Assembly: GCA_035221665.1 (NCBI GenBank)
Contig: CM069137.1
Location: 76,942,001 to 77,006,000, forward strand
DNA: 64,000 nucleotides
Reading direction: 5' to 3'
Origin: Okamejei kenojei
Taxonomy: Eukaryota
Part shown: positions 3,301 through 63,300 of the stretch, in pieces
How positions within the stretch are numbered: the first letter of the stretch is position 1
How the letters are laid out: the number at the start of each line of letters is the position of its first letter
Position numbers and translations under genes: made by a program
Notes under the pieces: generated by a model
Seen by the model: only the letters and a program-made list of their open reading frames with translations
The model's database searches: none
What the model was told of the DNA's origin: nothing

Positions 3301-6300
3301 CGCCACATTGACGACTGTATCGGTGCTACGTCCTACACCCATGCAGAACTCACTGACTTCATCAACTTCATGACTAGTTTCCATTCTGCACTCAAATTCG
3401 CTTGGACCATCTCGGACATTTCTCTACTGTTTCTGGATCTCACCGTCTCCATCACAGGAGACAGACTATAAACTGACATCTATTACAAATCCACTGACTC
3501 CCACAGCTATCTTGACTACACTTCTTCCCACCCTGCATCCTGTAAAGACTCTATCCCCTACTCTCAATTCCTCTGTCTACGCCGCATCTGCGCCCAGGAT
3601 GAGATGTTCCATAGCAGGTCATCAGAGATTTCCTCATTCTTTAGGGAACGGGGGTTCCACTCTACCATTATAGATGAGGATCTCACTAGGATCTCCTCGA
3701 TATCCCGCAGCTCCGCTCTAGCTCTTCCTCCCTCCATTCGTAACAAAGAGAGAGTCCTCAACTTCCACCCCATCAGGCGTTGCATACAGCACATAATCCT
3801 CCGACATTTTCGTCACATCCAATGGGATCCGACTACTAACCACATCTTCTCATCTCCACCCCTTTCCACTTTCAGCAGAGACCGTTCCCTCCGCAACTCC
3901 CTGGTCAACTCGTCTCTTTCCAGCCAAAACACCCCTTCTCCGGGTACTTTCCCCAGTAACCGCAGGAGATGCAACACCTATCCCTATACCTCCCCCGGAA
4001 CTCTGTCCAAGGACACCGACAGTCTTTCAAAGTGAGGCATAGGTTCACTTGCACCTCCTCCAAAGTCATTTACTGTATCCTCTGTTCCAGTTGTGGACTC
4101 CCGTGTATCAGCGAAACCAAGCGTAGGCTTGGCGATCGTTTCGCTAAACACCTCCGATTGGCCCGCCTAAACCTACCTGTTTTCCTGGTTACTCAACATT
4201 TTAACTTCTCATTCCATTCCCACACTGACCTTTCTGTCCTGGGCCTCCACCATTGTCAGAGTGAGGCCCAGCACAAATTGGAGGAAAAGCAACTCATATT
4301 GTGCTTGGGGGTTACACAAAAAGCTGGAGAAACTCAGCGGGTGCAGCAGCATCTAAGGAGCGAAGGAGATGGGCGACGTTTCGGGTCGAGACCCTTCTTC
4401 AGACATATTGTGCTTGGGTAGCTTGCACCCCAGCGGTGGGAACATTGACTTCTCTAACCTCAAGTAGCCCTTGCTTTCCCTCTCTCTCCATCCCCTCACC
4501 CTTCCCAGCTCTCCTACCGGTCTTACTATCTCTGACTACATTTTATCTCTCTGTACCGCCCACTCCCTTGACATCAGTCTGAAGAAGGGTCTCGACCCAA
4601 AACGTCGCCCATTCCTTCTCTCCAGAGATGCTGCCTGTCCTGCTGAGTTACTCCAGCATTTTGTGTCTACCAAGGAGTAATAAGATACTGAATAAATATT
4701 AAGCAGAATATATATATATTTTTAAAACAATCACCTTTAACAAAAAGATTTGTTGTACAGGAAATTGTTCCAGCATCATTGCTGATTTCACAAATGTAAT
4801 CATCCGCATCAGATGGTTTCACTGAAAAAAACTCAAGATAGGTTGTAGAAATATCCTTCATAATGAAACAGCTGCCACCAGTCACAAGTTCTGTGTTACC
4901 CTTGTACCATTTCATTGACATTGGAGGTGTTCCATTTACAACAGTCTTAAACTTCACAGTTGTAGCAGGCAGAACTTTCACTGATGCAGGTTTTAATATA
5001 AAGCTTGGTGGTTCTAAAATAAAAAAAATTAAAACAGCACATAAACTTCATAGTAATCAAACATATCAAGCAAGTACGTTTTCCCACCTTACGTTTCCCC
5101 TTTTTTGAAAATGTGCCACAAGATATGCAGGCAAGAGACGAGTGGTCGACTGGTCCATTTAATTGGGATCAAAAAATGAATATTATTTTATCACTAATGA
5201 GGCATATTCCATGGATTTGCCTAAAAGATTAGTGAATGTATCTGCCAAATAGTTAACTAACACAAACCAGCAAATATAATGATCAATTGCTAATGTGTGG
5301 TCAGCTAGCTGATCTCTGGAGGGTGATTGTGGCATCCTTGTTACCACAGCAAGAAATGAGACAAAAAAATGAGGGAGGGTGTTTATTCCTAACATTTGAC
5401 GAATGGAAGTTGAATAATGGCAGGAAGGAACTGCAGATGCTGGTTTACACTGTAGACACAAAATGCTGGAGTAACTCAGTGGGATAGGCAGCATCTCTGG
5501 AGGGTCACCTTCTGAAAGGTCTCAAGCTGAAATGTCACCCATTTGTTCTATCCAGAGATGCTGCCTGCCCCGCTGAGTTACTCCAGCATTTTGTGTCCCT
5601 AATGAATAATGGCAGAATACCGCTCTGCAGAAACAACTGCCCTAGTTGAATAGCTTACTGATTTTCTGCGCCAAGCATCATTTGAAATTATGGACCATCG
5701 AATAGGAACTAAAAGATAACATAAAAACTTCCTTGGCAGAAAAGGTGTCAGGAAAGAAAAAATGGCCCAAAATGTAGGCAAATTTCAACATATTTATCAA
5801 TGAATATGTCATTTAAGTGACAATAAAACTTATTTACACAAAAACCATATTGGCAAAAGAGAAAATGTCAGAATTAAGTTATGTGTTCAAACCTTTCACA
5901 TTTAAGACTCCACTGCATTCATCACTTCCTGCAGAGTTAGTAGCTTTACACGAGTAAGTTCCACCATCCTTAATTTCTAATTGTTTAATCGCCAGAACAG
6001 CGGTGTTGTCTTGACATGACATTGTGTATTTAACACTGGCTGATAACTCTTTGTCATCTTTATACCAAGAAATCCCAACAGGGAGAGAACCAGAGAATTT
6101 GCAATCCATGTGAAAGGTCGCACCCAATGTGCTGGTCATTTTCCTTAATTTTTTAGTGAAGGTTGGGGCAATCATACGATCTGTCCAAGGCAAAGCAACA
6201 TGTCAATGATATCTTAATTAATTAAAGAATTTGCTTAAATTATTGAAAAAATAATAATTATCAATTATATACTAACCCAATACTGTAATGGAAGTTTTGC

Positions 6301-39300: not shown

Positions 39301-42300
39301 TATGCTTTACTACGAGCATTAAAGTATTATTTCATTGTGGAGATTAAGTTTATAGTGAATAAAGCAAATGGCATGTTGGCCTTTATAACAAGAGGAGTTG
39401 AGAATAGGAGCAAAGAGGTCCTTCTGCAGTTGTATGGGGCCCAAGTGAGACCACACCTAGAGTATTGTGTACAGTTTTGGTCCCCTAATTTGAGGAAGGG
39501 CATTCTTGCTATTGAGGGAGTGCATCGTAGGTTTATAAGGTTAATTCCTGGGATGGCGGGATATGTCATATGTTGAGAGAATGGCGTGGCTGGGGCTTGT
39601 ATACTCTGGAGTTTAGAAGGATGGGAGGGGATCTTACTGATATAAGATTATTAAGGGCTTGGACACGCTAGAGGCAGGAAGCCTGTTCCCGATGTTGGGG
39701 GAGTCCAGAACCATATAACCATATAACCATATAACAATTACAGCACGGAAACAGGCCCTCTCGGCCCTTCCAGTCCATGCCGACCATTTGTTTTCCCCTA
39801 GTCCCATCTACCTGCACTCAGACCATACCCCTCCATACCCTTCACGTCCATATACCTATCCACTTTACTCTTAAATGTTAAAATCGATCCTGCCTCCACC
39901 ACTTCTGCTGGAAGCTCATTCCACACAGCCACCACCCTCTGAGTAAAGAAGTTTCCCCTCACGTTACCCGAAACTTCTGTCGCTTAATTCTCATGTCATG
40001 CCCTCTTGTTTGAATCTTCCCTACCCTCAATGGGAAAAACGTATCCACGTCAACTCTGTCTATCCCTTTCATCATTTTAAAGACCTCAATCAAGTCCCCC
40101 CTTAACCTTCTGCGCTCCAAAGAATAAAGACCTAACTTGTTCAACCTTTCTCTGTAACATAGTTGCTGGAACCCTGGCAACATTCTAGTAAATCTCCTCT
40201 GTACTCTCTCTATTTTGTTGACATCCTTCCTATAACTAGGCGACCAAACTTGTACACCATACTGCAGAATTGGTCTTACCAATGCCTTGTACAATTTTAA
40301 CATTACTTCCCTACTCCTATATTCAATGCTCTGATTTATAAAGGCCAGCACACCAAAGGCTTTCTTTACCACCCTATCTACATGTGATTCCACCTTCAGG
40401 AAACTATGCACAGTTATTCCTAGATCCCTCTGTTCCACAGCATTCCTCAATTCCCTACCATTTACCATGTACTTCCTATTTTGATTTGTCCTGCCAAGAT
40501 GTAGCACTTCACACTTAACAGCATTAAACTCCATCTGCCATCTTTCAGCCCACTTTTCCAAATGGCCCAAATCTCTCTGTAGACTTTGAAAATCTACTTT
40601 TCAGGGGCCACTGTTTAAGAATAAGGGGTAAGCCATTTAGAACGAAGACGAGGAAACACTTTTTCCTCACAAAGAGATGTGAGTCTGTGGAATTCTCTGC
40701 CTCAGAGGACGGTGGAGGCCGGTTCTCTGGATACTTTCAAGAGAGAGCTAGATAGGGCTCCAAAAGATAGCGGAGTCGGGGGATATGGGGAGAAGGCAGG
40801 ACCGGGGTACTGATTGGGGATGATCAGCCATGATCACATTGAATGGCAGTGCTGGCTCGAAGGGCCGAATGGCCTACTCCTGCACCTATTGTTTATAGTC
40901 TAATGTCTATTCTTCTGTTATTTTGTTTCCTACAGAAAACAGCCTGGATTACTTTTTGATTTTTCTGTTTTAGTAAAAGCGCTTCTGTTTTTTTAATTGC
41001 TACTTTGTTTCCTTTTGTTTAACTTCTTGTTTTGATCTAAATGGATACTGGAAAGATTGACACAAATTCCATGAGGATCATGAGCAACTCTAGTTACTGC
41101 TGCAAATGATGTAAAAAACCTGATATAAGATTCTTGACAAAAGATTCCAATATATTAAAAATTATAAATTCTGTATTGGCAGTTTGCGATCTAGAACAGT
41201 AACAATTTAGAAACATAGAAATTAGGTGCAGGAGTAGGCCATTCAGCCCTTCGAGCCTGCACCGCCATTCAATATGATCATGGCTGAACAATTTGAAGTG
41301 ATCCCAAACATTGTTTGCCTTAATGTGAATATTTCCCCCTGAGAATATAGGGGGAAATATTCCTATATTTCCCCCTATAGGGGGACTATAGGGGGAAATA
41401 TAGTCCCCCTATATTTCCCAAAAATATAGGACTTCCAACCCTCATGAATAAAATTTATTTTTTTGGACCTTAAGTATAATATATGTACAACTTACAAAAC
41501 GTTAGACCAAAAAAAGTGAAAATGAATCAAAAGTTGAAGACAAAACATTCTCACGCTGCACGTCTCTGACAAAACTTTACGTACACTGTATGCTTGAAAA
41601 AATGGATTAATGAAAGATATTGGCATTTTTATTTTGAATCAACACGAAAGAAACAAATTTAGCTGTGGGCTAGTGACCATTCTAAAAACAAATATATTTT
41701 TAAAAACCTGTTTTAATTTAATTAGTGTTATGAACTATGAAATTGAAATGCCATCAATAAGCGAGTTTGGTATTACAACTGCGCATTCCCAGGTCAAGGT
41801 TTATTCGGGATAAACAGTCTCGCCAGCTGAGCTACCATGTGTGCACGGACCTGAGTATTCATTTCAATGAGATCTATAAATAAAAATATGTCAGCAGTAG
41901 GCCACAGCGTACTGCAGGTTACACAAATCCACAATTGTATCTATTTAAATTATTGACTCAACACAGCACCAGCCTTGAAAAAGCAAGAATGCCTGGAACG
42001 AACCTGGCAATTATCAAATCCCTGGTATTAACCTGTCACACCCATTCAAATTCGAAATTGATTTACTCGAATTAGAAGTTGTGTGGTCAACCAATTTGAG
42101 ACAGTCATTACATTCCTATCTAAACAACTTTCCCGGATTGAAGTAAAGGAGGACAATGTGCTGTTTGTGGGTAGGTCGGAAAGTTCAGATTGGATTCGAA
42201 AAGGCTAGTCAAACGTTCAAGGTAGCTTGGCTTAAATAGAGATGCTGTCACTTTAACCTCTGGGGTTGGTTCCACCTGTCAGGGCACACAGTTGGGAGCC

Positions 42301-45300
42301 AGTCCGGGTGACCGGGCGGTGGTAATTATGAGAATTTTCAGCCATTTGAACCGCAGCCAAACTAGAGGCTTCACTCAGGAGTGGGTCGCAGCTCCCCAGC
42401 AGACGGGACCTGTTCTTGCTCTTTTTGAAGTAGGCGCCGCCCGCCCCAGAGAGTGGGCAAACGCGGAGCCAATCCGTAATAAGAGTGGGTGCATTTTCTC
42501 AGCCACACAGACAGAACAGTTTAATAACGACACATTAAAATCTACCATTCAGCCACCTGCAACCTGGGTTGATCTGACCTGACAGCCCTCTCGCTAGCTC
42601 GCTGAGTGCAGAACCTAACACAGAACCTCTCTTTGGGTAACACCTGCACAAAGCGCCTCTGCTAACAAGAGCTGGCGAACTGTGCTGGTCAACGTGCTCT
42701 GGGCGAGATGGCTGGGGGAAACGTACCGCAACCACCGCAAACTTGAAACAGCACAGGCCCTCCACTCAATCTATCCAATGTTAAAGGGCAGGCATTTTGC
42801 AGTTAAATGTCTTATATAGGATTGGTGGTTCTATCACAGGACCAACCCTGTACTCAGTTTTCCTCGGAGAATAATCTTTGCCTTAACATTACATTCACAC
42901 CGCCTGTAGGTAAAGCAGCAGCCCACATCATACTGATGCAGTCGCTGCCTTCCTCAGATTAAATATATTTTTACACATAAATTATGAATAAAGATACGAA
43001 AATGTTTCAAACACAAGTAATATTTTCTTATTCCAGTAGCAAACACATTAAGGATTAAGAAAATAATAAATTCTTTAACTTTTTGAATATCTCATAATTG
43101 CAGATTAATGAATTTAACTAGAATTGGGACTGTGTAAGTAGTGTGTGAACAGCAGAACAAGAAAGGACGTGATTGAGTTGACAGAATTCTAGATTAATTC
43201 CTTGGTAGAATAGTTAACAATTTATATGCAGTTTATACAGCGCTGCATTCGCTTTGTTTTTAATCCGAAATGACCTTTGACAAATCCCATGAGTCCTTGA
43301 GTTTATCGACATACCGAACTCGCTTATTGAATGCTGCCCGGATCCACACATGGACAATCCCAGGTAGAAACAATGTATGAGGGATGTGCAACCTGTTTGA
43401 GATTCTATGAAGCCAATCATTCTGTAATTGATAGTGTTAGTACATTGTAGGATAAAATGAAATAAACAAAATAAAATGCATTTGTAAAGTAACAGGAACA
43501 ATTGCAAGTGAGATATAAACCATCAAACTATCAGTATCTATTAGTTAAAATTACATCAAAATAATCCAAATTATACAGTCAAAATTCTCTTAGGGCATCT
43601 ACACCCAATATCAAGACCCAGAAATGGCTTGGATTTGACCATAATAATCAAATGCTACATCAGGATGCACTTTATCAGACAATTTCAGTTATTTTAAAGC
43701 TTAGCAAAATAAAATGACTGAGATGATATAAAAGAGATACACAAGTCTTATAGATAATTGCAACAGCAGTGACCAAATATTTGTCAGGAAATAAGTGGAA
43801 TTCAAAGCAATGGTTTATCGTAGCATTGGCCCTCTTGGTGATTTTTCGGCGACTGCCGGCATCATTGACTGACCTATCGGGTCACCAAAAAATTTGCGGC
43901 GTGTTGCGGCGGTGACGCGGCGTGATGACGTATGACCCGCGGTGTTTTTTCAAGTGTCGCAACATTTTTTTGTTGCCGCGGATTTAAGTGTTCAAAATCT
44001 TTTGACGACACTGATATGTCGCCGAAAAAAATCGCCAAGTGGGACAGGCCCATTAATAGATACATGGAGATCTTATAATAACTCCCTATTTCGCAAAAAA
44101 GTGTATTCATTTGGTTTTAGATTTAGCAAGTATGATAGAACAATTTGGAAAGGAGAATCAAAATGCTAATTCTGATGCATTCCAGTATATTGCATGCGTG
44201 ATAAATGATAATTGGTTAATTGGTTAATAAAACAAAGCCATCATAAAGTCGTAAGAGGAGGAATACGTTTCTGTCTGCAGTGAACTTTAATAAAATTGAC
44301 AATATAATACAATCAAAATCTCACCAGAGGGGATGTTTAAATTTAGATGATTAATTAGATCTCACAGGGTATATCATAGATTTGACGGTGCTAGTAATAA
44401 TACACAACAGAAGGTAACTTTAAGGTTTCTGGATGTCTTGGAGTGGCTGCAGGACATTCTCAAGAGGAAAGGTGACCAACCAGAAGTTGTGCACATTAGC
44501 ACAAACGACATGGGGAGGAAAAGGATAAGTTCCTGCAGAGTGAATATGGGGAGATAGGCAAAAGATTAACAAGTAGGGCCTCAAGGGTAGTACTGCCATG
44601 TGCTAGTGATGGCAGAAATAGGGGGATTGAACAGATCAATGCGTGGCTGAGTTGATGCTGAGAGCAGGGATTCAAATTTTTGGATACTGGGACACAGATG
44701 ACCTGTGCAAGAGGGACGAGTTCCATCTGAACTGGTGGGGACCAATTTGGGGGCGGGTTAAACTAAAATGTAGAGGTGTTGGAACTAGAGCAGAATGTAA
44801 GCAAATGAAAGGACTGGTGGGAAGATAGAGGATTGGGAAGTTAGACTAAAAGGAAGGACAGGCATAGAGAGGTTAAGGAATATGGTGAAACTGATGGACT
44901 GATGTGCTTACTTCAACGCAAGGAGTATTGTGAGTAAAGCAGATGAACTTAGACCCTGGATCAGTGCTTGGAACTATGTTGTTTTGGCCTTTATGGAGAC
45001 ATGGTTGCAAGAGGGATAGGACAGGCAGCTCCACATTTCCAGATATCGATGTTCCAATGTGATAGGGAGGTAAAAGAGGTGAAGGAGTTGCTCTGCTAAT
45101 CAGGGAGAAGTCACGCTGGCAATTAGAGGGGATATGCTGTAGGCTTTGTCCACTAAGGCAATATGAGTAGAGTTCAAAAATAAGAAAGGTGCAATATATA
45201 TAGTACAGTATCTGTACTATAGACCTCCATATAGCCAACAGAAGATAGAGGAACAAATATGTAGATAGATTATAGAAAAATGCAAAAGCAACAGGATTGT

Positions 45301-48300
45301 CCCGGAGGGAGACTTTAAATTCTCCAATGTTAACTGGGTCTCACTTGATCAAAAGACTTAGAAGTGGCAGAATTTGTTAGGTGTATCCAAGATGGGTTCC
45401 TGAAACAGGATGTGGAAAGTCCAATTCAAGAAGAGACCCTACTGGACCTTGTACTGAGGAAAGACCCAGGTTACTGATGTTTCTGTGGAGGAGTATTCTG
45501 GAAATGGAGATCATAACTCCATAAGTTTTAAGGTAGTTATAAATAAGGATAAGTCTGAATCTTTTAGGAGGATACAAAATTAGGGAATTACAGATTACAG
45601 CATAATTAGGCAGGAGTTGGTGTGAGTAAATTGGGAGCAGTTGTTATTGGGCAAGTCCACTTCTGACATGTGGGAGCCATTTAAAGGCCAACAAATGCTC
45701 CAGGACAGCATGATCGAGTAAGGAGGAAGGATAAGGAACAAGGATAAGAGGCAATGTATGGGACCCTTCGATAACCAAACCAACCACATTTGATCAATTA
45801 GAAAAAGGAACATGTGTACGGTTTAGAAAGGTGAAATTAAACAGGGCACTTGTTGAATATAAAGTAAGCAGGAAGGAATTTAAATGGGCAATTAGAAGAG
45901 CCAAAAATCCCAAGGTTTTTATATGTACATTAAAAACATGTGGGTAACTAGGAAGAAAATAGGACCACTCAAGGATAAAGGAGGGAATTTATGCTTGCTG
46001 TCAGAGGATCTAGGCAAGGTACTGAGTACTCTGCATTTGTATTCGCCAAGGCGAAGGACATGGAGTTAATTGATATTAGTGTGAAGAGTACTAATATGCA
46101 AGAGCAGTTTGAGATCAAGAAGTAGGTGCCGTTGGTGCTCTTGAAGAGCACTGAAGGGAGAGATATGATCATGGGCTGGCAGATGGGATTAGTTTATCTT
46201 GGCATCATGTTCAGCATAAACATTGTGAGCCTGCTCCTGTATTGTGCTTTTCAATGTTCTATGCTCCAAATTGACACAAATCTGTAGATTAGATTTACTT
46301 CATTTGTCATAGTCCAAATGACCTTTGTTTGCAATATGCAGCAATGATTATGAAACAACAATGGAAAAAGAAATGACAACACCTAACGAAAAGATTATTC
46401 TCGGCAAGATTGTGAGAAGATGGTTAGAAGTGGCTAATGCCATAAAAAGTCAAAACAAGTTACTTCGTGGTTGATTTCTGAGGCAGATGCCTTCAGTAAA
46501 TAATGCATTAACTCCTAATGAACCAAAGATTGACTAACAATTATATTTAAGGCAGATCTTAAAAAGAAAGCTGTATGCTAAGGTAACTAGCAGACGTCAT
46601 TTTCAAGATCAACTTAAGGATACCATTAACATTATCCTCTTTTCTCTACAGAAACTCTACTGTCTGATCAAAATGTGGTATTTCCATGAAGTACTGGTAA
46701 ACTTAAACTTAAAGTTATTTCACTTCAAAGTAACCTTGCTATTGAAATTAACTTCTATACTTGTTCCAATCAATCCAATTATGTCTACCCAAAATGTTTT
46801 TTTAAAAATTGGACTCAGATATTACAAATTTTATTTGGGATTATAAATCCCACAGAATACAAAGACCACACCTGAATAAACCCAAAGTAGTAGGGGGATT
46901 AGCACTCCTGAATTGTATGTATTATTATTGGTCGGTAAATATTAGAAATATGATTCAATTGTTGGATAATTCTCTTCATCAACCAGAATGGATCATTATG
47001 GAGAAAGAGGACTGCTCCCCTTTTAATATTGGTGCGATCGTTTTTTCACCAATGACGGTGAATAATACAAACTACAACAAAAACCCAATTATACATAGTA
47101 CAATCAGAATTTGGAAACAAATAAAATACAATTTAAAATTAAGAAAATGATCTCTCCTATCTCCTATTGCTAAAAACCCTCTGTTTAAACCCTCAATTAT
47201 AGACAAAGCATTTATACAATACGAACTTTGGGAGATTTGTATGATATGGGAAAACTACTATCATTTAAACAATTACAACTAAAATATAATCTGGGTAACA
47301 ATCAGTATTTTAAATATTTCCAAATATGTGATTATCTGAAAAAACATGCACAAGAATTTCACAAAATGCCATTAGACTTACTAGATTAAGTAATGAATAC
47401 AAAGGCGAAATCAGCAAATTTAATTTCATATATATATAATATTATACTAAATGCAGTGATACCAACAACGGAAGGTATCAGAGGTGAGTGGGAAAACAAA
47501 CTAAGCATAAAAATTTCCAATGAAAGGTGGAAAGAGTACTTATTAAATATGCACAAATGCTTAATTAACGTGAGACACACTTTAATACAATTTAAAATTT
47601 TACACATATTATACTACTCAAAAACGAAATTAAATAAATGTTTCCCTAACGTTTCACCAATTTGTGATAAATGCCAGTGTCAAGAAGCTACTATAGCGCA
47701 CTCATTCATCTTCTGTACAAAAATTCAAAGGTTTTGGATTGAAATCTTTGAAATTTTCACAAAACTGTTTAAAATAAAAATGACACCGAAGCCAGAATGG
47801 ATTATTTTCGGAATAACAGAAGGTAGTTCGGAATTAAATATGTATCAAAAGAATCTATTTGATCACGGCTTAATAATAGGAAAAAAGCTAATCTTAAAAT
47901 TCTGGAAAAATGTGCCTATATCAACATTAAATATGTGGATTTCAACTATGTTTGAAACATTACATCTGGAAGATATGAGACTCCACCTGGCAGGAAAATC
48001 AGATTGTTTCTATCAGACGTGCATTTATAGAATTACTACAAAGATAGGGTGCAGGAGTACCTAGGGCCTTGGTAGGGGGGGGGATGAAAAACTATCGAGT
48101 TGGTGGATTCCTTTTGCGTGATATATATAATATAGTAACTGGCTTTTTTTTTCTTTTCTCTCTCTTTGTCTCTCTTTCTTTTTTCCTTTTCTTTTCTAGG
48201 GTCTATCTCCTAACCCCCTTTCTCTAATTCTTTGACCAAGGGTTTCTTCTCCCCTTTGGCACGCTCTTTCACTTTCACAACTCTTTTCACCTACTTCACT

Positions 48301-51300
48301 CTCTTTCTATTCTTTTTCTTTAAAAGCCATAAAATTATGGGGTACAATGACTGTAACAATATATATGTGATGTACATTGATGTAGTTGCCTCTAATAAAT
48401 AATTTTTTTTTTTTTAAGAATTTAAAAAAATTAACAACACAGAATGAACACAATTAATTGGATTCAGATGCAAGGATATAAAGAATAGACTGGGCTTTGA
48501 AGGGACAGGCTTTTGTCAATAGGGGCAAAATTATTTTGTATTATAAAAGGGAAATGGTTTGAGGCAAACCTAAATAAATTGAAAGGAGTCAAGAGTAAAA
48601 TTTAAGAGTCATGTTCCTGTGTTAGACTGAAAATGGTCTCAACGCGAAACATCACCTATACCTTCTCTCCACAGATGTTGCCTGTCGTCCTGAGCTATTC
48701 CAGAATTTTGGGTCTATTTCCTGTGTTAGAGCATTAGCATAGAAATGCTGCAGCAATTAAAGTCATTTTATTACATTTATTAGAATCCAACGTCATTTAT
48801 TTTTCCTTCTAATATCTTATCTTATGCCTACTTAACAGTAGCGTTACTTGGTTTCAATAAACTTGAAAAGAGTTTTCAGTTGCATTGCTTTGTGATACTT
48901 CGATAGGTTAAGGATTTAGGCTCCGTCTGAACTAGAGAAAGGACACAAAGTGCTGGCGTTACTCAGTGGGTCAGGCAGCACCTTTGGAGATGAACATAGA
49001 TAGGTGTTGTTTCGGGTCGTGAACCTTCTTCAGACTGAGATCTATGTTCTCCCAAGTGGGAATATGAGGGGTTCTTCTTCCAGTTTGCATGTAGGCAGTG
49101 GAAGAGGCCAAGGAAAGACAGGTCGATATGGGAATGAGAAAGAGAATTAAAATGACTAACATCAACAAAATCCAGCAGGCCCTCGTAGACAGAGTGCAAA
49201 CATTTGGCAAAGCAGTCAACTAATTTACACTTAGTTCTGCACTACCTGCAGTTGCTGGGGTAAGTGCTAGGGGAGCAGGATGGGTGGGGGAAGGACGAGT
49301 GAGCAATAGAGTCATGAAGAAAGCGTTTTTTATGGAAAGCAGAAAGGGGTGTAACCAGGATGATGTGTCTGGTTATGGCATTCCACTGAAACTGGCAGAA
49401 GTGTCAGAGAATGCTGTATTGGATTCTGGTGGGGTTCAAAATTAAAGGAACTCTATCTCTGTTCTGTCCAAGGAAGTATTGCTAGAGCAGAACTGTGGGA
49501 GATGGAGGAGACGTGGTAATGCTGCATCTACAACTACAGACTAAACCACGTTTTCATGAACACTAAATTCTTCAATTTTGGGTAACCTCTGCCCCTTCTC
49601 ACTGACCCAGTTCCTCTCCACCTCCACCCCCATTCAAACACCCCCTACCGCCCCTCTTTCGTCACCCAGTTCCTTGCTCCTCCATCATCTAATCATCTGC
49701 CATCCCTCTGTACACTGGGCCTCCCACATTTTCCCCCCACCTCCCATTCCCTTATACCTACTATCCTTTCCTCCATTTTACATTGCACTGCTCATTTTCC
49801 TTTCTGTTCAGATTGCACAATTTGCACTCTCACGGTTGGTTACTATCTCTACACTTTTTATCTCCACCTGACTCATCTGCCAATCAAACTCTTCTAAGAT
49901 CCACCTATCACTTGTCGGCTCAGGCCCCACCTCCTTCCCCTTACCTCTTTCCACCACCTATCTACCATCAATTCCCTCAGTCTGAAGAAGGGGCATGACC
50001 CAAAATGTTGTCGATCCATTTCCCTTCACAGATGCTGCTTGACCCACTGAGTTCCTTGAGCAGTTTTTTTTTTGCTCAAGATTCCAGCATCTGTAATCTC
50101 TTGTGTCTCCATGAAATTAAAATGTAGTACCTCAATAGGCAGTAATTGTTCTGTTACTACTTAGGCCACATGCTAATTGTACACAAACAGATTTGCGCTG
50201 TTTTAAAGAAGGAACTGCAGATGCTGGAGAATCGAGGGTACACAAAAAGCTGGAGAAACTCAGCGGGTGCAGCAGCATCTAAGGAGCGAAGGAGATAGGC
50301 GACGTTTCGGGTCGAGACCCTTCTTCAGACTGGTCAGGGATCAGGGAAACAAGAGATATAGACGGTGATGTGGAGAGATAAGGAACAATGAATGAAAGAT
50401 ATGCAAAAAAGTATCGATGATAAAGGGAACAAGCCATTGTAAGCTGTTTGTGGTGTGAAAATGAGAAGCTGGTGCGACTGGGGTGGGGGAGGGAGATAGA
50501 GATAGAGGGAATGCCAGGGCCCGAGGACTGAGGGAGAGGTGGGAAGGGGAGGAGACAGCAAGGGAGAATTGAGAAAATTCAATATTCAAGCCCAAAGGAT
50601 GCAGACCCAAGCGGAATATGAGGTGCTGAGCTTGCGGTGTTGCTCACTCTGGCCGTGGAGGAGGCCCAGGACCGAGAGGTCGGATGTGGAATGGGAGGGG
50701 GAGTTGAAGTGCTGAGCCACCGGGAGGTCGGGTTGGTTATTGCGGACCGAGCAGAGGTGTTCGGCGAAGCGATCGCCAAGCCTCCGCTTGGTCTCACCGA
50801 TATAGATCATCTGGCATCTGGAGCAGCGGATGCAGTAGATGAGGTTGGAGGAGGTGCAGGTGAACCTCTGTCGGACCTGGAAGGACTGCTTGGGTCCCTG
50901 AAAGGAGTGGAGGGGGGAGGTGAAGGGACAAGTGTTGCATTTCTTGCGGTTGCAAGGGAAAGTGCCCGGGGAAGGGGTAGAGTGGGAGGGGAGGGAAGAA
51001 TTGACAAGGGAGTTGCGGAGGGAGCGGTCTTTGCGGAAGGCAGACAGGGGGGGAGATGGGAAGATGTGGCGGGTGGAGGGGTCACGTTGGAGGTGGCGAA
51101 ACTGGCGGAGGACTATATGTTGTATTTGCCGGCTGGTGGGGTGAAAGGTGAGGACCAGGGGGACTCTGCCCTGTTTGCGAGTGGGGGAATGGGGAGCGAG
51201 GGCAGTGTTGCGGGGTATGGAGGAGACCCTGGTGCGAGCCTCATCAATAGTGGGGGAGGGGAATCCCCGTTCTCTGAAGAATGAGGCCATTTGTGATGAC

Positions 51301-54300
51301 CTGGTGTGGAACACCTCATCCTGGGAGCAGATGCGGCGTAGACGGAGGAATTGGGAATAGGGGATGGAGTCCTTACAGGAAGCAGGGTGGGAGGAAGAGT
51401 AATCCACGTAGCTGTGGGAGTCAGTAGGTTTGTAGTGGATGTCGGTCAGGAGCGTATCACGTGCAATAGAGATGGTGCTGTGCAATGAACTCTAACAATG
51501 AAGGAGGCCCAGGACAAAAAAGTCAGATTGTGAATGGGAGGGGGAGTTAAAGTGCTGAGCAACCGGGAGATCAGATAGGTTAAGGCGGACTGAGCGGAGG
51601 TGCTCGACGAAACGATCGCGAGCCTGCGCTTGGTCTCGCCGATGTACATAAGTTGACACCTGGAACAGCGGATACAGTAGATGAAGTGGAGGAGGTGCAA
51701 ATGAACCTCTGCCTCACCTGAAAAGACTGTCGGGGTCCTTGGATAGAGTTGAGGGGGGAGGTAAAGGGAGAGGTATTGCATCTCCTTCGGTTGTTGGGGC
51801 ATGTACCTGGGAAGGGGGTGGTTTGGATGGGAAGGGACAAGTTGACCAGGGAATTGCGGAGGGAATGGTCTCTGTGGAAAGCAGAAAGGAGTGGAGATGG
51901 GAGGATATGGCCTGTAGTGGGACCCCGTTGGAGGTGGCAAAAGTGTTGGAGGATTATATGCTGTATTCGACGGCTGATGGGGTGGCAGGTGAGGACAAGG
52001 GGGACTTTGTCCTTGTTGCGAATGGGGAAAGGGGGAGCAAGAGCGTAGCTACGGGATATCGAGGAGACCCTAGTGAGAGCCTCATCTATAAAGGAAGAGG
52101 GAAACCCCCTTTTTCCAAAAAATGAGGACATGGCTGATGATCTAGTATGGAAAACCCCATCCTGGGCGCAGATGCAGTGTAGACGGAGAAATAAGCGAGT
52201 TCGGTATTCCGACTGCGCATGCCCAGGTCATTGGCCACTCACGATAAACAATCTCGGCAGCTGTGCTGTTGCGTGTATGCAGGCCTGCGTTTCGTCCGTG
52301 GTCGGGGTCGGGCCCGGGTCTCCGTCGCTGCGAGTGCTGTTGAGTTGCTGCTGCGCCATCCCTTCCCCTCCCAGGTTTCCCGTCCCTGTCCAGAGGCGGC
52401 CAGAGGTGTCCGGGGTGGCCCTGGGCGGTGGCGATCCCGGGTTTGCAGCCGGTGTGGGGGGGGGGGGTGGGGGTGGGGGGGAAGTGCTGGCTCCATCTCG
52501 GCTCTGCCTATCCAGCCGAGTTGGCTGGCAGAGTCAGCCCGGAGCGGTGGGGGACCATCAGCTGTTACTCTCGTCCTGTCCAGTGGCTGTCAGTTGGCCC
52601 CCTCGGTGTCGGCGGGGATGCACACGGGGTGCTGCGGTGGCTCGGCGGGTCAGGCAACATCTCTGGAGAAGGGTCTCAACGTCCTTTTCTCCAGAGATGC
52701 TGCCTGATCCGCTGAGTTGCTGCAGCGTATTGCATGTGGCCCCGTTGATGGCTGGTGCTCGGCTTTCACCAGCTCCGGGGAGTTGGCCAGCAGCCGCTGG
52801 GTGGGGCAGGGGGGGTTCGGCTGGCGGCCCCTGGCCCGTCGGGGAGCGTGTTCCTCGGGTGTTGGAGCACGGTTGGGGTGGAGTTGGCACTTCTTCTCTG
52901 TGCTGGATGTGGGCCTGGGGCCACCGCTGCTCCGGGCCATTGTCCCGTCAGTACGGGGCTGTCAGTTGGCCTGGCAGGGCAGGTGGAGTTGAGCTGGGGT
53001 CAGCGCTTCTTCTCCACGCTGGCTGTGGGCCTGGGGTCGCCGCTGCTCCAGTCCGGTGTCTCGTCGGTCCGTGGTCGCCCCGGACGACTTCCCCCCCCCC
53101 CCACCCCCCCACCCCCGCCCCGGGGACGGTCCAGCACCGGGTACCTGGGTTTGATCCTGGTTGCGGCTGAGGTGCGGGCCAGGTGCTGCCAAGAATGTCT
53201 CTCCGCCGGTCCAGTCTCTCCCACTCGCATCTGCCCCCACTCTCTCTCTCGCTCTCTCATTATTTGTCGCCCCCGGTCCTCAGATTAAATGCAGCCAGCG
53301 CTTTGACCTTTGACAAATCCCATGATTCCTTGCGTTTTTCAGAATACCAAACTCGCTTATTGAGAGTAGGGTATAGAGTAAAAGTACTGTTTGTTTGGAA
53401 TTACCTGCCATTAATTGCAATGTAGTCGTAAAGATCAGAGTCATAAAGCACGGAAACCTGAGGCCAATCCGACCATGCCAACCTAGTTTATGATCATTTT
53501 GGAGACTAATTTGTGGAGCTACAATCATCTTCCAGTTTGAGAATGGAAAAAAAAATCAGCATTTCAACTCTTAATAACTAACCTGTGACCTCTGTTGGTC
53601 TATGTCATTGCAGTTTAGTTTATTGTCACATGTACCGAGGTACGGTGAAAAGTGAAAAACGTTTGTTACGTACCTACCAATCAGCAGAAAGACTATACAT
53701 GATTAGAATCGAGCCATCCACAGTATATAGATACATGTTAAAGGATTAATGTTAGTGCAAGATAAAGTCCAGTAAAGTCTGAATGAAGGTAGCCCAAGGG
53801 TCTCCAATGTGGTAGAAAGTACTGAAGACCGCCCTCTAGTTGTTGATAGGATGGTTCAGTTGCCTGGTAACAGCAAGGAGGAAACTGTCCCTGGATTTGT
53901 ATAGATAATGTGTCAGCATAGGTGAAGCTCAGTTGTGTTAGCTAAAATGGTCTGGCACATACATATCAATTCAGGTTAAGTAAAAAAATCCCTTTGGAAA
54001 CCAATTTCAGCAAAAGTCACCACTTTGTGGTTAAGAAGAGAGATACTAAGAGATGTAAAGCTGAAGTTTGTATTTCGAACTTACCTGTTCCGGTAACACG
54101 GCACAGAAATTGAGCAGATTTTCCTTCAGTGGTAGTAGCGTCTTGTATTGGACTTATAATGGTAGGTGGATCAGCAGGTACCTCTGCCTCAGGTGAAACA
54201 ACTTCTGGAACTGAAAATAATTAAATAAATTAATTGACTGCTTTTAAATATTATTCTGGTTATTCCTAAATGACATACGAGTGAATGTAATCTAGGGCTA

Positions 54301-57300
54301 TGTGGAAGACTTTCCAAAGAGCAGTGAAATTTATTGCGATGATAAAATTATGCAAAACATAAAGCTGCTATTTGTAGAAAATAGGCAAGTTACATTTAGT
54401 TATCTGCAAAAATAGATAATGACAGAAACAAAATAAATCAAAACTTTATGCAACCTATTTTCTCTTGTTTTGACTTCAAAGCATACTGACAAGTTTACTA
54501 TTCAACTGCATGCCAAAGACAAATTTCACAGGCAATTATAAGAAATTCCCACATATCATAGTACTAACATGAAAATACACCAATTATTTGAATTATACCT
54601 TCAATATCAAGTGAAGCACCACTAACAGCGACCCCAGCTTCATTTTTTGCTTCACAAGTGTAGGTGCCAGCATCTTCAGGGAATGTTTCAATCAGTAGCA
54701 AAGTATACTGGTTCTCATCATGAAGAATCTTGCGTTTAAATCCAGAGGAAAGCTTTTGACCATCTTTGTACCAAGATACTTCTAATTTTGGTGTACCAAC
54801 TATTACTCCACAAAATCGTGCGGGTTCTCCTGCTTTCACAGCACAAGGTTCCAGTTCCAAATTGAAAGACGGTGGATCAGGAGCTATAAACAAGAAGGTT
54901 CAAGATTTCAGCATCTTATTTCCACAAATTGATAAAAGTTTGGTCTATGTTCACACGTTCAATGTTACACACTTTCCTGAAGTGTTTGCCTGAATTAATT
55001 GGAATATGTTAAACACAATATTAAAAATATCAATTTACAGAACTAAATAATTGGGTATTTAAAGAAAAACACAATATGATAGGTGAGTCTCTGGAATTCT
55101 CTGCCACAGAAGGTAGTTGAGGCCAGTTCATTGGCTATATTTAAGAAGGAGTTAGATGTGGCCCTTGTGGCTAAAGGGATCAGGGGGTATGGAGAGAAGG
55201 CAGGTACAGGATACTGAGTTGGATGATCAGCCATGATCATATTGAATGGCGGTGCAGGCTCGAAGGGCTGAATGGCCTACTCCTGCACCTATTTTCTATG
55301 TTTCTATGATGCCTTTATTTATGGAGAGTTAATACTTAATAGTCAGCTTCAATTAACCACCTTCATTTTTGTTGCATTTCTTAAACAGTTGTTCGAAACA
55401 AATTGAGATTTAATTGACTAAAATTTTGTCTTGGTAGTAGTGGGCCAAAATTCAATTTTGGCAGGCGCACAAAACAGGTTCAGCAAGGGACAGCTTAATA
55501 TACCATCCACACTCTTTTCCATTTTATTGATGTCAATGGAAAGGACCACTAGGTAAATATTAATTGAATTTGTGGATCGCATTTCACCACTCCTCCCTCG
55601 GCTAAATATGAATAATGGAAATTACAATGTTCTAAACCCCTTCCTCAGTATTTACAAATATATTAATAAGGGCCACCAAAGCCCCATGCTTTCCCCTTGG
55701 ATGAGCATCCATTCTGATTGTCCCACTGCAACATTCTTGGCATTTAAACCTAATCTCATGAACCTCTTTCCTGTCCCACACATCTCGTGACAATTGTCCA
55801 CTGAATCTGTCAGAAGATAACAATGAATGCCACTCTGTAAATGTTCCTCAAGATTAACAGCTCACCCAAAGCAAACTTGTTGTAACCAACTGGATAATTG
55901 ATCATATATCCTGCCTGACAAAGACTTCATGTACATAATAGCTATCAACATCTTGCCTTTCACTTAAATCTGCTTGCATGACAGTAATTTTAACCATTGT
56001 TGAGATGAAAGTACACATTTAAATATTTTTTGCATTTATATATACACAAACACAACAGTTTCCCATAATGCCTCTGAGCACACACTTTGTTGCAATCTAC
56101 TGTCCTCTCTTTAATGCCAAAGCAAATTCAACTTCTGGTTTATTACCAAAATATCCTTGTTTGCTTCCATTCTTTATAACCACACTGACTGATTCCTCGC
56201 CCTCTGTCTACTTCAATTTAACCTCTTCTTTTTCCTCATATTCTACTTCTCTACTATCAACCTTTCCCTCCACATACATTTACTAATCTATAGACAGTGC
56301 AATTTCCACTACATATTATGGTTTCTATATCCCTGTGTGCATCAACATCTCACAAACCCTATTCCTTTCCTTCTGATCCTGGTAAAAATAATATCAAGGT
56401 ATATTTGCAATTAAAGGCTTTAAAACTTTCAGCCACTGTTCTTCATCTGTTGAGGTTTCTTCCACTTATAATTTTCTGTCGTTATTTTTTCTCTCATCCA
56501 TCATAATTATTTTCAACGTTAGGATCCTATCTCATTATACACATATTATCGCCTTATTATATACTCCGTCTGACAAAGGGTCTCGATCCCGAAACATCAT
56601 CCATTCCGTCTATGTTGCCTGTCCCGCTGAGTTACTCCAGCATTTTGTGTCTGTCTCCTTATTATTACCAGCGTCAGTCTCTGTTCCTACATCAGTCCAT
56701 TTACTGCTGAAACTCTCTCGTATCTTCAAAATGTAACTATTCCGATGCACTCTTGTCAGCTTCCTATTTTCCGCTTTGTAAACTGCAAAATTCTGATGAA
56801 ACCCTGCTTTTCTTTCTTCATAACTCCTGGACCGCACTACATTGATTGGCTCACTTATAAAGCCCCAATTCAATATTCCCACTGTTTAATTTATTTCATT
56901 CATAAAAATATCATAACCGCTTCCAATCTGTCCCATCAACCTCAAAACCACAAATATTCTTCAGCTTTGGTCTCCCGAACACCTTCCACTCAAACTACAT
57001 CGCCTAAAGTTCTACTATTTTCTTCCTGAAGTTCTAAGCATCTCCATTCTCCAGTGCTGCTTTAGAATCTCTTTATAAATTACCTGAATGAAAAAACTTT
57101 GTTCAAGCATATAGTTTTATCTAATTACAGAGTTACATTTGTAGAGTTGAAAGTGTTGCAAAACAGCAAAAATCTATTGTTATTCTTGTACATACCATTA
57201 ATATGAAGTGTTACAGTACTTCGATTCTTTCCTGCAACAAAGACGTATTCTCCAGAATCAGAAACTCTTGTTTCAGTAATGGTCATTCGATGCACACGTC

Positions 57301-60300
57301 TTTGAATTATATATCTGTATCTTTCTTCAACTTGGAAATTGATTTCAATTCCATCTTTGAGCCATTGAGCCTCAACCTCATCTTCATTGACTTCAAATTC
57401 AATAACTGCTCGCTTTTTCTCAATTATCTAAATATGAAGAATCATTTTGTTAAAATTCTGCATGAAAGTATCCAATAACTGCCTGCCTATCACATATATC
57501 ATCATTCTACATCTTATGGTGTTTGATAACTGTAAAAGTTAGGGATTCTAAGTAAAAATGAAGAAACACATTATACCTGAATATCTGTGGAAATGGGTTT
57601 TGAAATCAAAATGTGTCGTGCTTCCATATACAAATTAGCAGTAGAAATACTTCCACCTGCTACAGCTGCGTACTGGCCAGCATCAGACATTTTTGTAACA
57701 GGAATGGTGAGACGATGGACAAATTTTTCATTATGAATCTTAATTCTGTAAAAAAAAAAGCAATAAAAGTGAAATTGTAAGTTCAGCATTTTAAATTTAG
57801 CTTTGGACAAGGCCAAGATGACTAAACGTATAGGAAATGGTGGTGAGGCCAATAAATGATGTAGAAGAAGCATGATTTACAGGAATACCTGAAGTTTTGG
57901 GGTGGTGCAGCAGGTTGGAGGAGATGAATTAAGCAAGAGTGGGAATTTAAGTGCATTGTACATAAGTACATTGCAACAAAATATTGGAAGGCACTAATGT
58001 ACATCTGTGTTAACGAAGAAACTGCAGATGCTGGAGAAACTCAGCGGGTGCAGCAGCATCTAAGGAGCGAAGGAGATAGGCGACGTTTCGGAATGTACAT
58101 CTGTTGCTTCAAGTAAATACAGGTGATATGGACATTGAATTAACAGAACAGGAGTTCAGTGAAATAAATTTTTCCTGGAGGATTTGTGGTAACTGATGAT
58201 AATGAGCCTCTTCATGGCGCCATTGCCTTGGTAACCAACGCCTTAAATGAACAAGGGATGCTTCAGCATAACAGCGCCAAACCTTATCCGAAAGATCGTT
58301 TACACAATATGTAAAGTTTATGATGATTATGTACGGAAGGCAACGTCAGAAGCAACGTTCCATGTGGCTTCTTGCTCTGGAGTGCCTTAGATATAACCAT
58401 AATTTGGTGATGCTGAACTTCATTTCTAAATGTATATAAAAGTGCTACATTTTACACAATTGTCAAGAGAATGAGCAATCTGTTACCAGTAAGGTGAACA
58501 GGCCTCTCTCTTCCACCCTCTCCGCCCAGTAGATGAAAGATCAATTGAATAAATAATTTTATCTGAACATAAAATTAAGTTATGCCAATATTTCTCTTGC
58601 TCCACAACATGTACATTAGGGATGGGTGGGAGGAGTGAGTGGGAGTATCGCTGGTGGACCAGTGTAGATTTGTATAGCAGTGATGTTGTGAGAGGATAAG
58701 CAGCAGAGTTTGACCAAAGTTATGATTTTAAAGTTTAAAGAGGGCATAAAGTGGGAAGTCAACAGGCAAGCATCCAAATAGTCACGTTGAGGATACGAGG
58801 TTAACTGATGCATAGATTAATACCTGTCAGAAGGCTGTATTTCTTCACCATTCTTCATCCATTGTAATGTAATGTTAGGTTCTGAAACTTCACACTCAAA
58901 GGTGGCTTTCTTCTTTTCAGTGATTTTGATGTCTTTGATATGTTTCCTAAATTCAATTTGCCGAGCTACAAAAGAAAAAAAATGCTGATTAAATACAGCG
59001 GATAGTAGGTTAAACAATGTTAATGTGATGCATATTACCAAACCAAATCATAAATAAATAATACAAGTTATTACCAGTCACATATAAAGTTGCTGCAGAT
59101 GATGCTGATCCAGCAACAAAACTGTACTCAGCTGCATCACCAAAGTGAACATTCCGAATTGAAAGTGTGTGATTTGATTGCTTCGTCCTTAGTTGTGTCC
59201 TCTCAGTTGATTTGATCTCTTTACCATTCTTGAGCCACTTGTAAGTTATACCTTCAAAATTCACTGTTACTTCAAAGGTAATTGTATCTTTCTCTTGGGC
59301 ATTCATGTCCTTTAACATAGATGTAATTAAAATGGCTAAAAAAAAAAGAAAACCATGTATTAGCTACAAAGTCACTTGACATACATCATTAATGACTTTG
59401 ATAGAACACACCCAAATGATTACATATGCAATAATGAAAAATGAACTTTAAACATGGATACACTGTATATATCAATGAGAAAGTCTTACGTTTTACTGTC
59501 AAAGTAGCAGATATTTTGTCATTTCCACAGATAAAGGTATACTCTGCAGAGTCTTCATGGCTTGTGTTCATTATGGTCAGCTGATGGAGTTTGCCTTGCA
59601 CAACTATTTTAAACTTGTCAGTCATTTCTATTTCCACACCATTTTTCAACCATGTGGCTGGGACATTGAAATGTGACAGCTCACACTGAAAAGTTGCATT
59701 TTTTGTCTCTGGAACTTCAATGCTCTTCATCGTCTTGGTGATATGTACAGCTTGAAATAAATTTAAATGAAAATTAGTGTACAAAAATCATGGATTTATA
59801 AATTAGTTTATTTAAATTTCTCTTTCGTGAAGCAGAAAAATATCGTTTTACACTCACTTTCCACATAAAGTTTGGCTTTACATTCCAGTTGCCCAATGAT
59901 GGCTGAGTACTCGCCAACTTGTGCTGAGGTGATATTCTCCAATATTAGTTTGTGAACTTTCCTTTCTGAAATTACTTTACATTTGCTACTTGGCTTAAGT
60001 TCAACATTGTTGAACATCCATTTTACTGGCACATTGTCATGCGACACACTCAATTCAAATGTAGCTGTGGAATTTTCCATGGCAGTAATATCCTTTGGTT
60101 TCTTAATAACCTTGATGACTATTAAGACAAAACCATAGCATTATTCAATGTCATCATTCAGATAAATATTTCAGATGCAATTACAATGTTTGCATGCAGA
60201 AAAAATACATACTTCAGTAACTTCAAGAACACAATTTATATAGAAATAATGGATAATTAATGAAATTGGAACAAAATAAATCATGCAATATTTTACTAAT

Positions 60301-63300
60301 TATTTGTAATCCTATTATTTTACATTTTAATTAAACCTTCACTTTAGGGACGTACTCTAGCACTGCAGGTGATGTGGCTGCCTCTTAGCTCCTACAAACT
60401 GTGTTTGAATCTGATCTCTGGGGGGAGGGGGGGCTGTGTGTGTCCCAAAGACGTGATAGTTATTAAGATAGCGACTGTTAAATGGGTGGGTGGTCAAGTA
60501 ATCTGTGGGTTCTTAATGGATAAATGTGAGAGAATAGGTCATAAGGAGATAATTGGAAGAATGGATTGGTTTGAGAGCCACCATTGACTCCATGGGCTAC
60601 ATGGCTCACCCCATATCATGGGAACATACATTAAAACCACTTATTTCTCTCTCCATCCCCGCCCCTCCCCAGTTCTCCCACTAGTCTTACTGTCTCCAAC
60701 TACATTCTATCATAGTCCTGCCTCCTCCCCTGACAGTAGTCTGAAGAAGGGTCTCGACCCAAAACGTCACCCATTCCTTCTCTCTTGCCCATTCCTTCGC
60801 CTTAGGGATGCTGCCTGACCCACTGAGTTACTCCAGCATTTTGAGTCTACCTTCGATTTAAACCAGCATCCGCAGTTTGTTCCTACACATATTAAAACCA
60901 TTGTGCTAATACCCACATTATACTAAGCTATATCAGTTGGTCACATTATGTACATTTTAAACAATGCAAGACTCCTAAAACATACTGAAAATGCATGAAT
61001 GCATTAGTATTTTTCAACAATTTTTCAATATTTGTATTATTCAATATTTGCTTTACGAAATATGTGGTGGAATATGGCTCTATACCAACCAGGATTGGTG
61101 CAGCGACATCACAGAACTGTCAAATTTCTGCTCTCCCAACCTAGAATCCCTCTTTATAAACTGCAAACCCTTCATCTCTCCGATGTATACTCCTTTATTC
61201 TCGCTGGAGTATACATCGGAGAAATGTATACTCCTTTATTCTCGCTGGAGTATACATTTCCCCCAAGCCTGCAGACGTGGGGCGCAAATGAAACTCGCTG
61301 ACCAAGTAATGAGGGTAGAGAGTGACTTCCCGGACTCCATGGTCATTGTTTTGGGGGACTTTAATAAAGCTAACCTCAGCAGTGACCTTCCAAGATACAG
61401 ACTTCATGTTACCTGCCCCACCAGAGGGGAGAGAACACTCGATCACTGTTGTTCAGCAATCAAGTACGCATATCGTTCTGTTCCCCGGGCGGGTCTGGGT
61501 CTCTCTGATCATTGCATAGTTCACCTTATTCCGACCTACAGGCAGAAACTAAAAGCTGCTAAGCCTGTGATCAGAACAACAAAAAGGTGGACAAGCGAGA
61601 GCATTGAGAACCTACAATCCTGCTTTGACTGCACAGATTGGAATGTGTTCAGGGAAGTAACCACAAGCCTCGATGAGTATACGGACACTGTATCATCATA
61701 TGTCAGCTTTTGCGGGGACAGTTGCATTCCAACTAAGACCCGGACATGGTTCAACAACAACAAGCCTGGTTCACTGCAGAACTCAGACAGCTCCTCTAAA
61801 GAGGAGGCCTACAGGAGCGGGGATGCAGACCTCTACAGGTGGGCCAAGTACAAGCTGAGAAGAGGAATCAGAGCTGCCAAGGAAAGATACTCTGAGAAGT
61901 TGAGAAGCAAGTTCTCAGCTAGTGACTCTTCTTCAGTTTGGAAGGGCTTGTAAGAAATTACCAGCTACAAGAGGACAATCGTCAGCAGACCAACGACCTG
62001 AATGCGTTTTTACTGCAGGTTTGAAAATCAGAAACGTAACCCTGGTACCCTCTCCACCCCTCTCCAACCAACACAGCCAGACTCCAGTCTACAAAGAATG
62101 GACCCTGCACCCTCTCCTTCCCATTGACCACTTCACACCTACTTAAGGCAAGATTCCAGTATGAAAAGACTGGACCATTTTCCACTCCAACCAACACTTC
62201 ACACCCACTCACAGCCTGACCTCAGTCTACAAAGACTGGGCCTTTCTACACCCACCCCCCTCCAATCACCACTTCACAGCCAATCACCCACACCCTCTGT
62301 GCTGCACAACATAACTTATCCAATATCAACAATAAAAATAGAGGAGGTGGAGAGGCTTTTCAGAGGACAAAAGAGCCGGAAATCTCCAGGAACTGACAAT
62401 GTTTCCCCTCTACTCTTAAGTTCTGTGCCTAACAGCTGACACCGGTCTATACAGACATTTTTAACCAGTCCCTGCAAACATGTACTGTCCCTGCCTGCTT
62501 CAAAGTCTCCACATTGTCCCTGCACTCAAAAAGCAAGGATCACTTGCTTAATGACTACAGGCCTGTCACACTGACCTCTGTAGTCATGAAGACACTCGAA
62601 AGGCTTATGCTGGCCAAGCTGAAAAATATCACAAACTCCCTGCTGGACTCTCTGCAGTTTGCATATCGGGCCACTAGATCTGTGGATGATGCAGTCAACC
62701 TGGGCCTGCATTTCATCCTACAGTACCTGGACCGCCAGGGGACCTGTGCGAGGATCCTCTTTGTTGATTTTAGCTCTCTATTCAACACCATTGTGCCAGA
62801 GCTACTACACTCCAAACTTTCCGAGTTGACTGTGCCTGAACCCCTCTGTCAGTGGATCACCGACTTCCTGACAGACAGGAAGCAGCATGTAAGGCTGGGA
62901 AAGCACATCTCGGACCCGCAAACGCTCAGCATAGGAGCACCGCAAGGCTGCGTACTCTCTCCTCTCCTCTCTCTACACCAACGACTGCACCTCCACAGAC
63001 ACCTCTGTCAAGCTCCTCAAGTTTGCGGACGACACAACCCTGATTGGACTGATCCGGGATGGGGAGGAATCTGCCTACAGACAGGAAATGTCACAGCTGG
63101 CGTCCTGGTGCTGTAGCAACAACCTAGAGCTCAATGCTCTTAAGACAGTGGAATTGATTGTAGACTTTAGGAGAGCTCCCCCTCCCCTCAGCCCACTCAC
63201 CATCAACAACACCACAGTCACATCTACGGAGTCTTTTAAGTTCCTGGGAACCATCATCTCCAATGACCTTAAGTGGGGGGCTACCATCGACTCCAGTCAA

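Follow-up and report, generated by a model that had tools for sequence, protein, structure and literature searches.

The 64 kb analysed here (the window; 64,000 nucleotides of contig CM069137.1, Okamejei kenojei assembly GCA_035221665.1, positions 76,942,001 to 77,006,000) lies within titin, which is encoded on the minus strand: immunoglobulin (Ig) exons run in minus orientation throughout the window and ~330 kb around it, and the best PDB matches of the frame at 12350-16027 are titin. Large exons below 31,150 we take, from mammalian gene order, to be Novex and N2B. Copies of a short repeat carrying a hammerhead-ribozyme core are scattered through the introns (Table 1). We found that these cores are minimal type I hammerheads belonging to a Penelope-like retrotransposon, where they sit in its terminal repeat; very probably they are ends of an abundant family, present on both strands of titin introns as likely inert, neutrally decaying passengers. 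The motif is real and of an already known kind, and a function in titin is unlikely.

Three cores, in which CUGANGA, an extra A, helix II, GAAA and GUC follow one another, lie on the minus, titin-coding strand at 4375-4402, 37237-37264 and 50301-50328, where the first-pass annotation had placed them. All three have the catalytic boxes CUGANGA, GAAA and NUH, and across 1.46 Mb of sequence 47 of 430 matches to the repeat are intact. Metazoan Penelope minimal hammerheads are described as having an extra base after position 9, a G10.1-C11.1 pair and palindromic 15.2-16.2 (Cervera and De la Pena 2014, PMC4209133), and the window motif shares these features with the hammerheads from the pseudo-long-terminal-repeats (pseudo-LTRs) of metazoan Penelope-like elements, including the extra nucleotide between 9 and 10.1. 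It differs in a helix II of 4-5 bp and in a helix I that is mostly 2 bp long (4 bp at 37237 but 2 bp at both 4375 and 50301, in agreement with the 2-4 bp first noted), which brings it closest to the D. virilis variant. The exact 28-nt core had no control matches, so the motif is not a chance occurrence. An Rfam scan, the kind of hammerhead search earlier proposed as a check, returned no hammerhead even with E values as high as 10 allowed, and with helix I of only 2-4 bp we found neither the stable helix I/III nor the Rfam match of a canonical type I hammerhead.

Other copies in the window are damaged. A profile search gave 17 repeat pieces, 12 of which span the core. Seven plus-strand copies are all lesioned, as had been reported, with G12A in three and a broken CUGANGA in four. 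Both minus copies named as defective, at 49007 and 58082, are indeed lesioned, although the latter is a 5'-truncated copy without the first half of the core. Core 37237, listed as intact, has all its catalytic letters but departs from consensus by a C11.1U wobble; the other outcome at the same CpG is the G12A lesion.

The assignment to a Penelope terminal repeat is borne out by the motif features and by position. Core 50301 comes after a frame of its own strand that shows helix-turn-helix and GIY-YIG features (GIY-YIG at Pfam E 4.7e-4, below the cut-off; Atlas HTH_animal/GIY-YIG score 0.97), and core 4579 follows a related plus-strand Penelope-like copy. For a frame joining reverse transcriptase to a C-terminal GIY-YIG domain, only the GIY-YIG end is supported; truncation and breakage affect the window copies, whose upstream fragments gave no Pfam match. 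Most other copies are ~100-nt stubs, solo or in inverted pairs. Among the window copies we found 5' truncation, inverted terminal-repeat copies and a target-site duplication, which together suggest that the reverse transcriptase and endonuclease of the element itself carried out the insertion. Endonuclease-bearing Penelope-like elements are described as leaving inverted pseudo-LTR insertions, tails and short duplications (PMC3846280, PMC8557442), and the window copies are alike in 5' truncation, adjacent inverted copy, target-site duplication and tail; the inverted pair at 4307-4678 differs in that two insertions made it rather than a single one. Stub similarity mostly starts 2-4 nt before the first core letter (for example 4402-4408, 37264-37270 and 4574-4579), giving a fixed 5' boundary.

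The first-pass annotation had proposed that intact cores are biased to the sense strand, with the caveat that this might be a small-sample or age effect. We called a core intact if it had all catalytic letters, NUH and four helix II pairs, wobble allowed, and applied this rule to the 1.46 Mb, comprising the window, its surrounding 400 kb and five other large genes (1.0 Mb), the last oriented by their clusters of LDL-receptor repeats. Of the 430 matches, 277 span the core; 42 in flanks without an assigned gene strand were omitted, and the sense/antisense tables leave out matches that do not span the core. In the window the fixed rule gave 3/4 intact in sense versus 0/8 in antisense (Fisher p = 0.018), and the annotation's own set, scored by hand, 3/5 versus 0/7 (p = 0.045). 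The rest of titin, however, gave 0/7 versus 2/10, bringing the whole gene to 3/11 versus 2/18 (p = 0.34), and the five other large genes gave 19/108 versus 20/113. Over everything outside the window the intact fractions were 19/115 in sense and 22/123 in antisense (p = 0.86), with 183 sense and 188 antisense copies in all. The sense-strand bias of intact cores is confined to one window and fails to replicate: the sense/antisense count suggested as a check, made here in the rest of titin and the five genes, shows no strand bias, and a small-sample or age effect, raised first as a caveat, is the explanation we offer.

Intactness tracks copy age. Using divergence of the tail outside the core as the measure of age, we found intact copies to be younger (median divergence to the nearest copy 0.032, n=45, versus 0.088, n=217; p ~1e-9), with 26/66 intact in the youngest age bin and 0/19 in the oldest; the copies at 4375 and 50301, the window's two exact cores, belong to a young subfamily. 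Most lesions are CpG decay: the CpG letters G12, C11.1, C15.2 and G16.2 are kept at 65-72% (G12 66%, C11.1 68%), while non-CpG core letters are kept at 93% and the tail at 92% (tail positions above 80% only). Genome-wide, the core-killing G12A occurs in 5,922 copies and the tolerated C11.1U, from the same CpG, in 4,555; the lethal change is no rarer than the tolerated one and core and tail are retained alike, which is neutral decay. We saw neither the purifying selection on the core nor the favoured sense orientation that would mark a domesticated intronic ribozyme.

Covariation in helix II, also proposed as a check, showed no consistent compensation: among 278 copies double changes are rare and 16/29 are paired, mostly as double transitions, a comparison with little power in one recently amplified family. 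Double changes at pair 10.2-11.2 gave 649 matches genome-wide, and by eye more than half of 100 listed are unpaired A with A. This variant, with A opposite A in the second helix II pair, recurs as a core form of its own (for example G000:C1:7328515-7328542), as does a core 2 nt shorter, and subfamilies with imperfect helix II appear to have spread.

The genome contains 48,215 copies of the exact 28-nt core (24,302 forward, 23,913 reverse), above the published 2,000-9,000 per genome (PMC4209133). Given this copy number ~1.1 exact cores are expected per 64 kb, and the window's two amount to average density; the whole titin gene, with the same two against ~5.8 expected, is not enriched. That so many identical cores show no orientation bias in introns suggests, as indirect evidence from the genome, that a solo minimal Penelope hammerhead does host transcripts little harm, in agreement with published in vitro inactivity of the monomer.

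Elsewhere in the genome, three exact cores lie within 110 nt (G000:C1:2018411-2018521), two of them arranged in tandem with the same orientation, which makes the site a suitable natural test case for dimer cleavage. Intact same-strand core pairs also lie inside other genes, 1.4 kb apart at L048:2219-3744, in sense to its host gene, and 0.4 kb apart at L126:6977-7447.

Each of the three sense cores in the window has a nearby inverted copy, at gaps of ~165, 55 and 165 nt for 4375, 37237 and 50301, respectively. Folded in 350-490 nt of pre-mRNA context, the cores are predicted to pair with the distant arm with probabilities of 1.00, 0.96 and 0.84 in the same order, native helix I and II having predicted probability 0.0 in all three; the predicted cost of the open hammerhead is 54, 45 and 30 kcal/mol. 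The antisense arm is transcribed before the core at 4375 and 37237, and after it at 50301. Within 1.5 kb none of the three has an intact partner on its own strand, and a modelled double-hammerhead dimer of the 50301 segment reached -6.7 versus -26.6 for the best co-fold, a gap of 20 kcal/mol. In isolation none of the three cores gave a hammerhead fold, and their folds were no more stable than shuffles, except for 37237 with its own inverted fragment.

The three intact sense cores are thus predicted to be locked in duplex with inverted copies: in the titin pre-mRNA each would pair with its neighbour. They would not fold to cleave because of this pairing, a helix I of 2-4 bp and the lack of a nearby intact dimer partner, all of which speaks against the proposal that titin pre-mRNA carries latent self-cleaving sites and that these matter to the gene. 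Such a case, with a ribozyme of transposon origin at work in titin, would have been striking; the data say otherwise. We also rejected the notion that intact sense cores persist only where an inverted neighbour masks them: outside the window, partners accompany 4/19 sense and 7/22 antisense intact copies (p = 0.50).

Cores 37237 and 50301 both lie in one 17.8-kb intron (36316-54084), which splits a single Ig domain between its flanking exons. A transcript-like 5,607-nt contig of run X1, >98% identical, joins the 54085-54210 exon directly to the 36128-36315 exon, and a contig of run X3 shows the same joined exon letters; contigs of X2 and X4 fall short of the junction. Runs X1-X4 come from one study and are only guessed to be RNA. 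That two cores occupy a giant intron upstream of the Novex/N2B choice, as first described, holds for their location, but the further shared exon at ~36128-36315 intervenes, and the intron directly preceding the alternative exons holds no repeat copy. Because the shared exon sits between the cores and the alternative exons, a cut at 37237 or 50301 would not by itself choose an isoform. As to presence of the 37237 insertion in other species, among the contigs listed for three related DNA-like runs none bridges the 37164 junction, the list being dominated by repeat contigs.

The X1 contig ends exactly at the exon end, window position 36127, a weak hint that splicing branches afterwards. Between 20362 and 27803 the minus strand has very long frames with Ig domains (1167, 579 and 602 aa), split by stops or frame changes; this is presumably the region of the terminal Novex-3-like exon.

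We weighed other accounts of the same cores. If intact cores had been retained in titin-sense orientation for cutting the pre-mRNA and so adjusting the output of titin or its choice of isoform, as domesticated intronic ribozymes, the split within the window and the position of two cores in its largest intron would be explained, and conserved intronic hammerheads do exist in amniote genes (PMC6155905). Yet the split vanishes in the rest of titin and over the whole gene, two of the three cores are young, near-identical insertions, the intron lies upstream of a shared exon so that a cut would not choose the exons downstream, and the cores are predicted to be occluded; we give this account almost no credence. 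Barely more credible is strand-asymmetric CpG deamination, by which coding-strand C-to-T changes would leave sense cores with tolerated wobbles and kill antisense ones. The window pattern fits, since C11.1U in the sense core 37237 and G12A in three antisense copies are all coding-strand C-to-T, but over all genic copies C-to-T and G-to-A on the coding strand number 284 and 255 (p = 0.23) and intact fractions are equal on both strands. It is improbable, though less so than either of these, that the cores are silent alone and cut at a low rate with the element's protein or when two copies meet, acting as conditional, unselected break points. A single minimal motif did not cleave in vitro whereas dimers cleaved weakly (PMC4209133), the Anolis hammerhead cleaved only when the element's protein was added (Frangieh et al. 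2024, PMC11167929), and the 50301 core stands in its native terminal-repeat context with a brief interval before its partner is made. Against such cutting, sense intact intronic copies are not depleted, as would be expected if it harmed hosts, the window cores have no intact same-strand partner at hand, and the Anolis study found no RNA-seq reads ending at the site (PMC11167929). Slightly less probable again is the broader version in which tens of thousands of sense intronic cores are live only under Penelope protein, 50301 then being a conditional cut site in titin pre-mRNA. For protein-assisted cleavage tests the repeat family is a handy substrate.

Several observations weigh against our preferred account of the cores as inert, neutrally decaying passengers. 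The strand controls are five genes, 1.0 Mb, plus the rest of titin, and would be compatible with a mild bias in either direction (19 versus 22 intact); the strand of the control genes rests on LDL-receptor repeat clusters, and some of these genes may hold nested ones. Inverted partners accompany 3/3 window cores and 11/41 intact genic copies outside, the computed energies take no account of tertiary contacts, proteins or the order of folding, and the 50301 core is transcribed ~235 nt ahead of its partner. The spliced contigs, from runs only guessed to be RNA, are also compatible with partial cleavage.

Minimal type I Penelope hammerheads have been proposed to act as dimers, and the available part of that survey names no cartilaginous fish (PMC4209133). 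Poseidon of Anolis carolinensis, an element with a protein-assisted hammerhead and a 'tail', resembles the window family in having GIY-YIG, in carrying the hammerhead close to where the repeat ends and in an optional stretch past that end (PMC11167929). Amniote intronic hammerheads such as that of RECK (PMC6155905) and the CPEB3 intronic ribozyme (PMC10274809) are likewise sense self-cleaving motifs within introns; as presented in these sources they are conserved single-locus motifs, in contrast to the window copies, which are young or decaying members of a mass repeat, show no mark of selection and have no counterpart in Rfam. Non-LTR retrozymes, also derived from Penelope terminal repeats and reported in one cartilaginous fish, are head-to-tail tandem units (bioRxiv 10.64898/2026.07.22.740005), whereas the window copies are solo or inverted, with no intact same-strand pair within 1.5 kb. 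From titles and abstract openings no paper on titin hammerheads was evident, repeat databases being outside the search, and nothing joined Penelope, hammerhead ribozyme and skate.

Table 1. Penelope-derived copies and flanking titin exons in the window
Feature	Position	Strand	Remarks
Older, 5'-truncated, broken Penelope-like element	3097..4678	+	Terminal repeat 4574-4678 with G12A core 4579-4606; inverted partner of 4375 core, 87% over 91 nt
Young solo terminal-repeat end (~95 nt)	4307..4408	-	Intact core 4375-4402; inserted into end of older Penelope copy; 15-bp target-site duplication (4295-4309 and 4404-4418); 98% identical to copy 50233-50334
Inverted pair of decayed terminal-repeat stubs	5450..5600	both	Plus: CUGANGA deletion; minus: without core
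Titin exon, second half of Ig domain	~36128..36315	-	Between two intronic cores and large alternative exons
Titin intron, 17.8 kb	36316..54084	-	Contains cores 37237 and 50301; spliced out in contigs X1, X3
Terminal-repeat stub	37164..37268	-	Core 37237-37264; all catalytic letters kept; wobble C11.1U; helix I of 4 bp
Short fragment and full inverted stub	37272..37426	+	Stub 37324-37426, broken core, 90% complementary to 37237 copy; transcribed ahead of it
Old stub	48624..48719	+	Core broken
Old stub, titin-sense	48935..49037	-	Cleavage triplet lost
Old stub	49978..50067	+	G12A; inverted partner (73% over 118 nt) of 50301 core, which is transcribed first
Young 5'-truncated Penelope-like copy	50200..51458	-	Helix-turn-helix and GIY-YIG frame end, terminal repeat, intact core 50301-50328; short extension past common 3' end
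Inverted stub pair	52619..52734	both	Cores deleted; missing from first-pass list
Titin exon, first half of same Ig domain as 36128-36315	54085..54210	-	
Stub	56567..56655	+	Core broken
Young-subfamily stub	58026..58091	-	Truncated inside helix II
Stub	60737..60857	+	G12A core; short internal duplication

The same introns also hold decayed reverse-transcriptase fragments of the long interspersed nuclear element type, at 32292-34913, 38380-41290, 46800-48060 and 60979-63720, with a Pfam RVT_1 match at 62433-63116.

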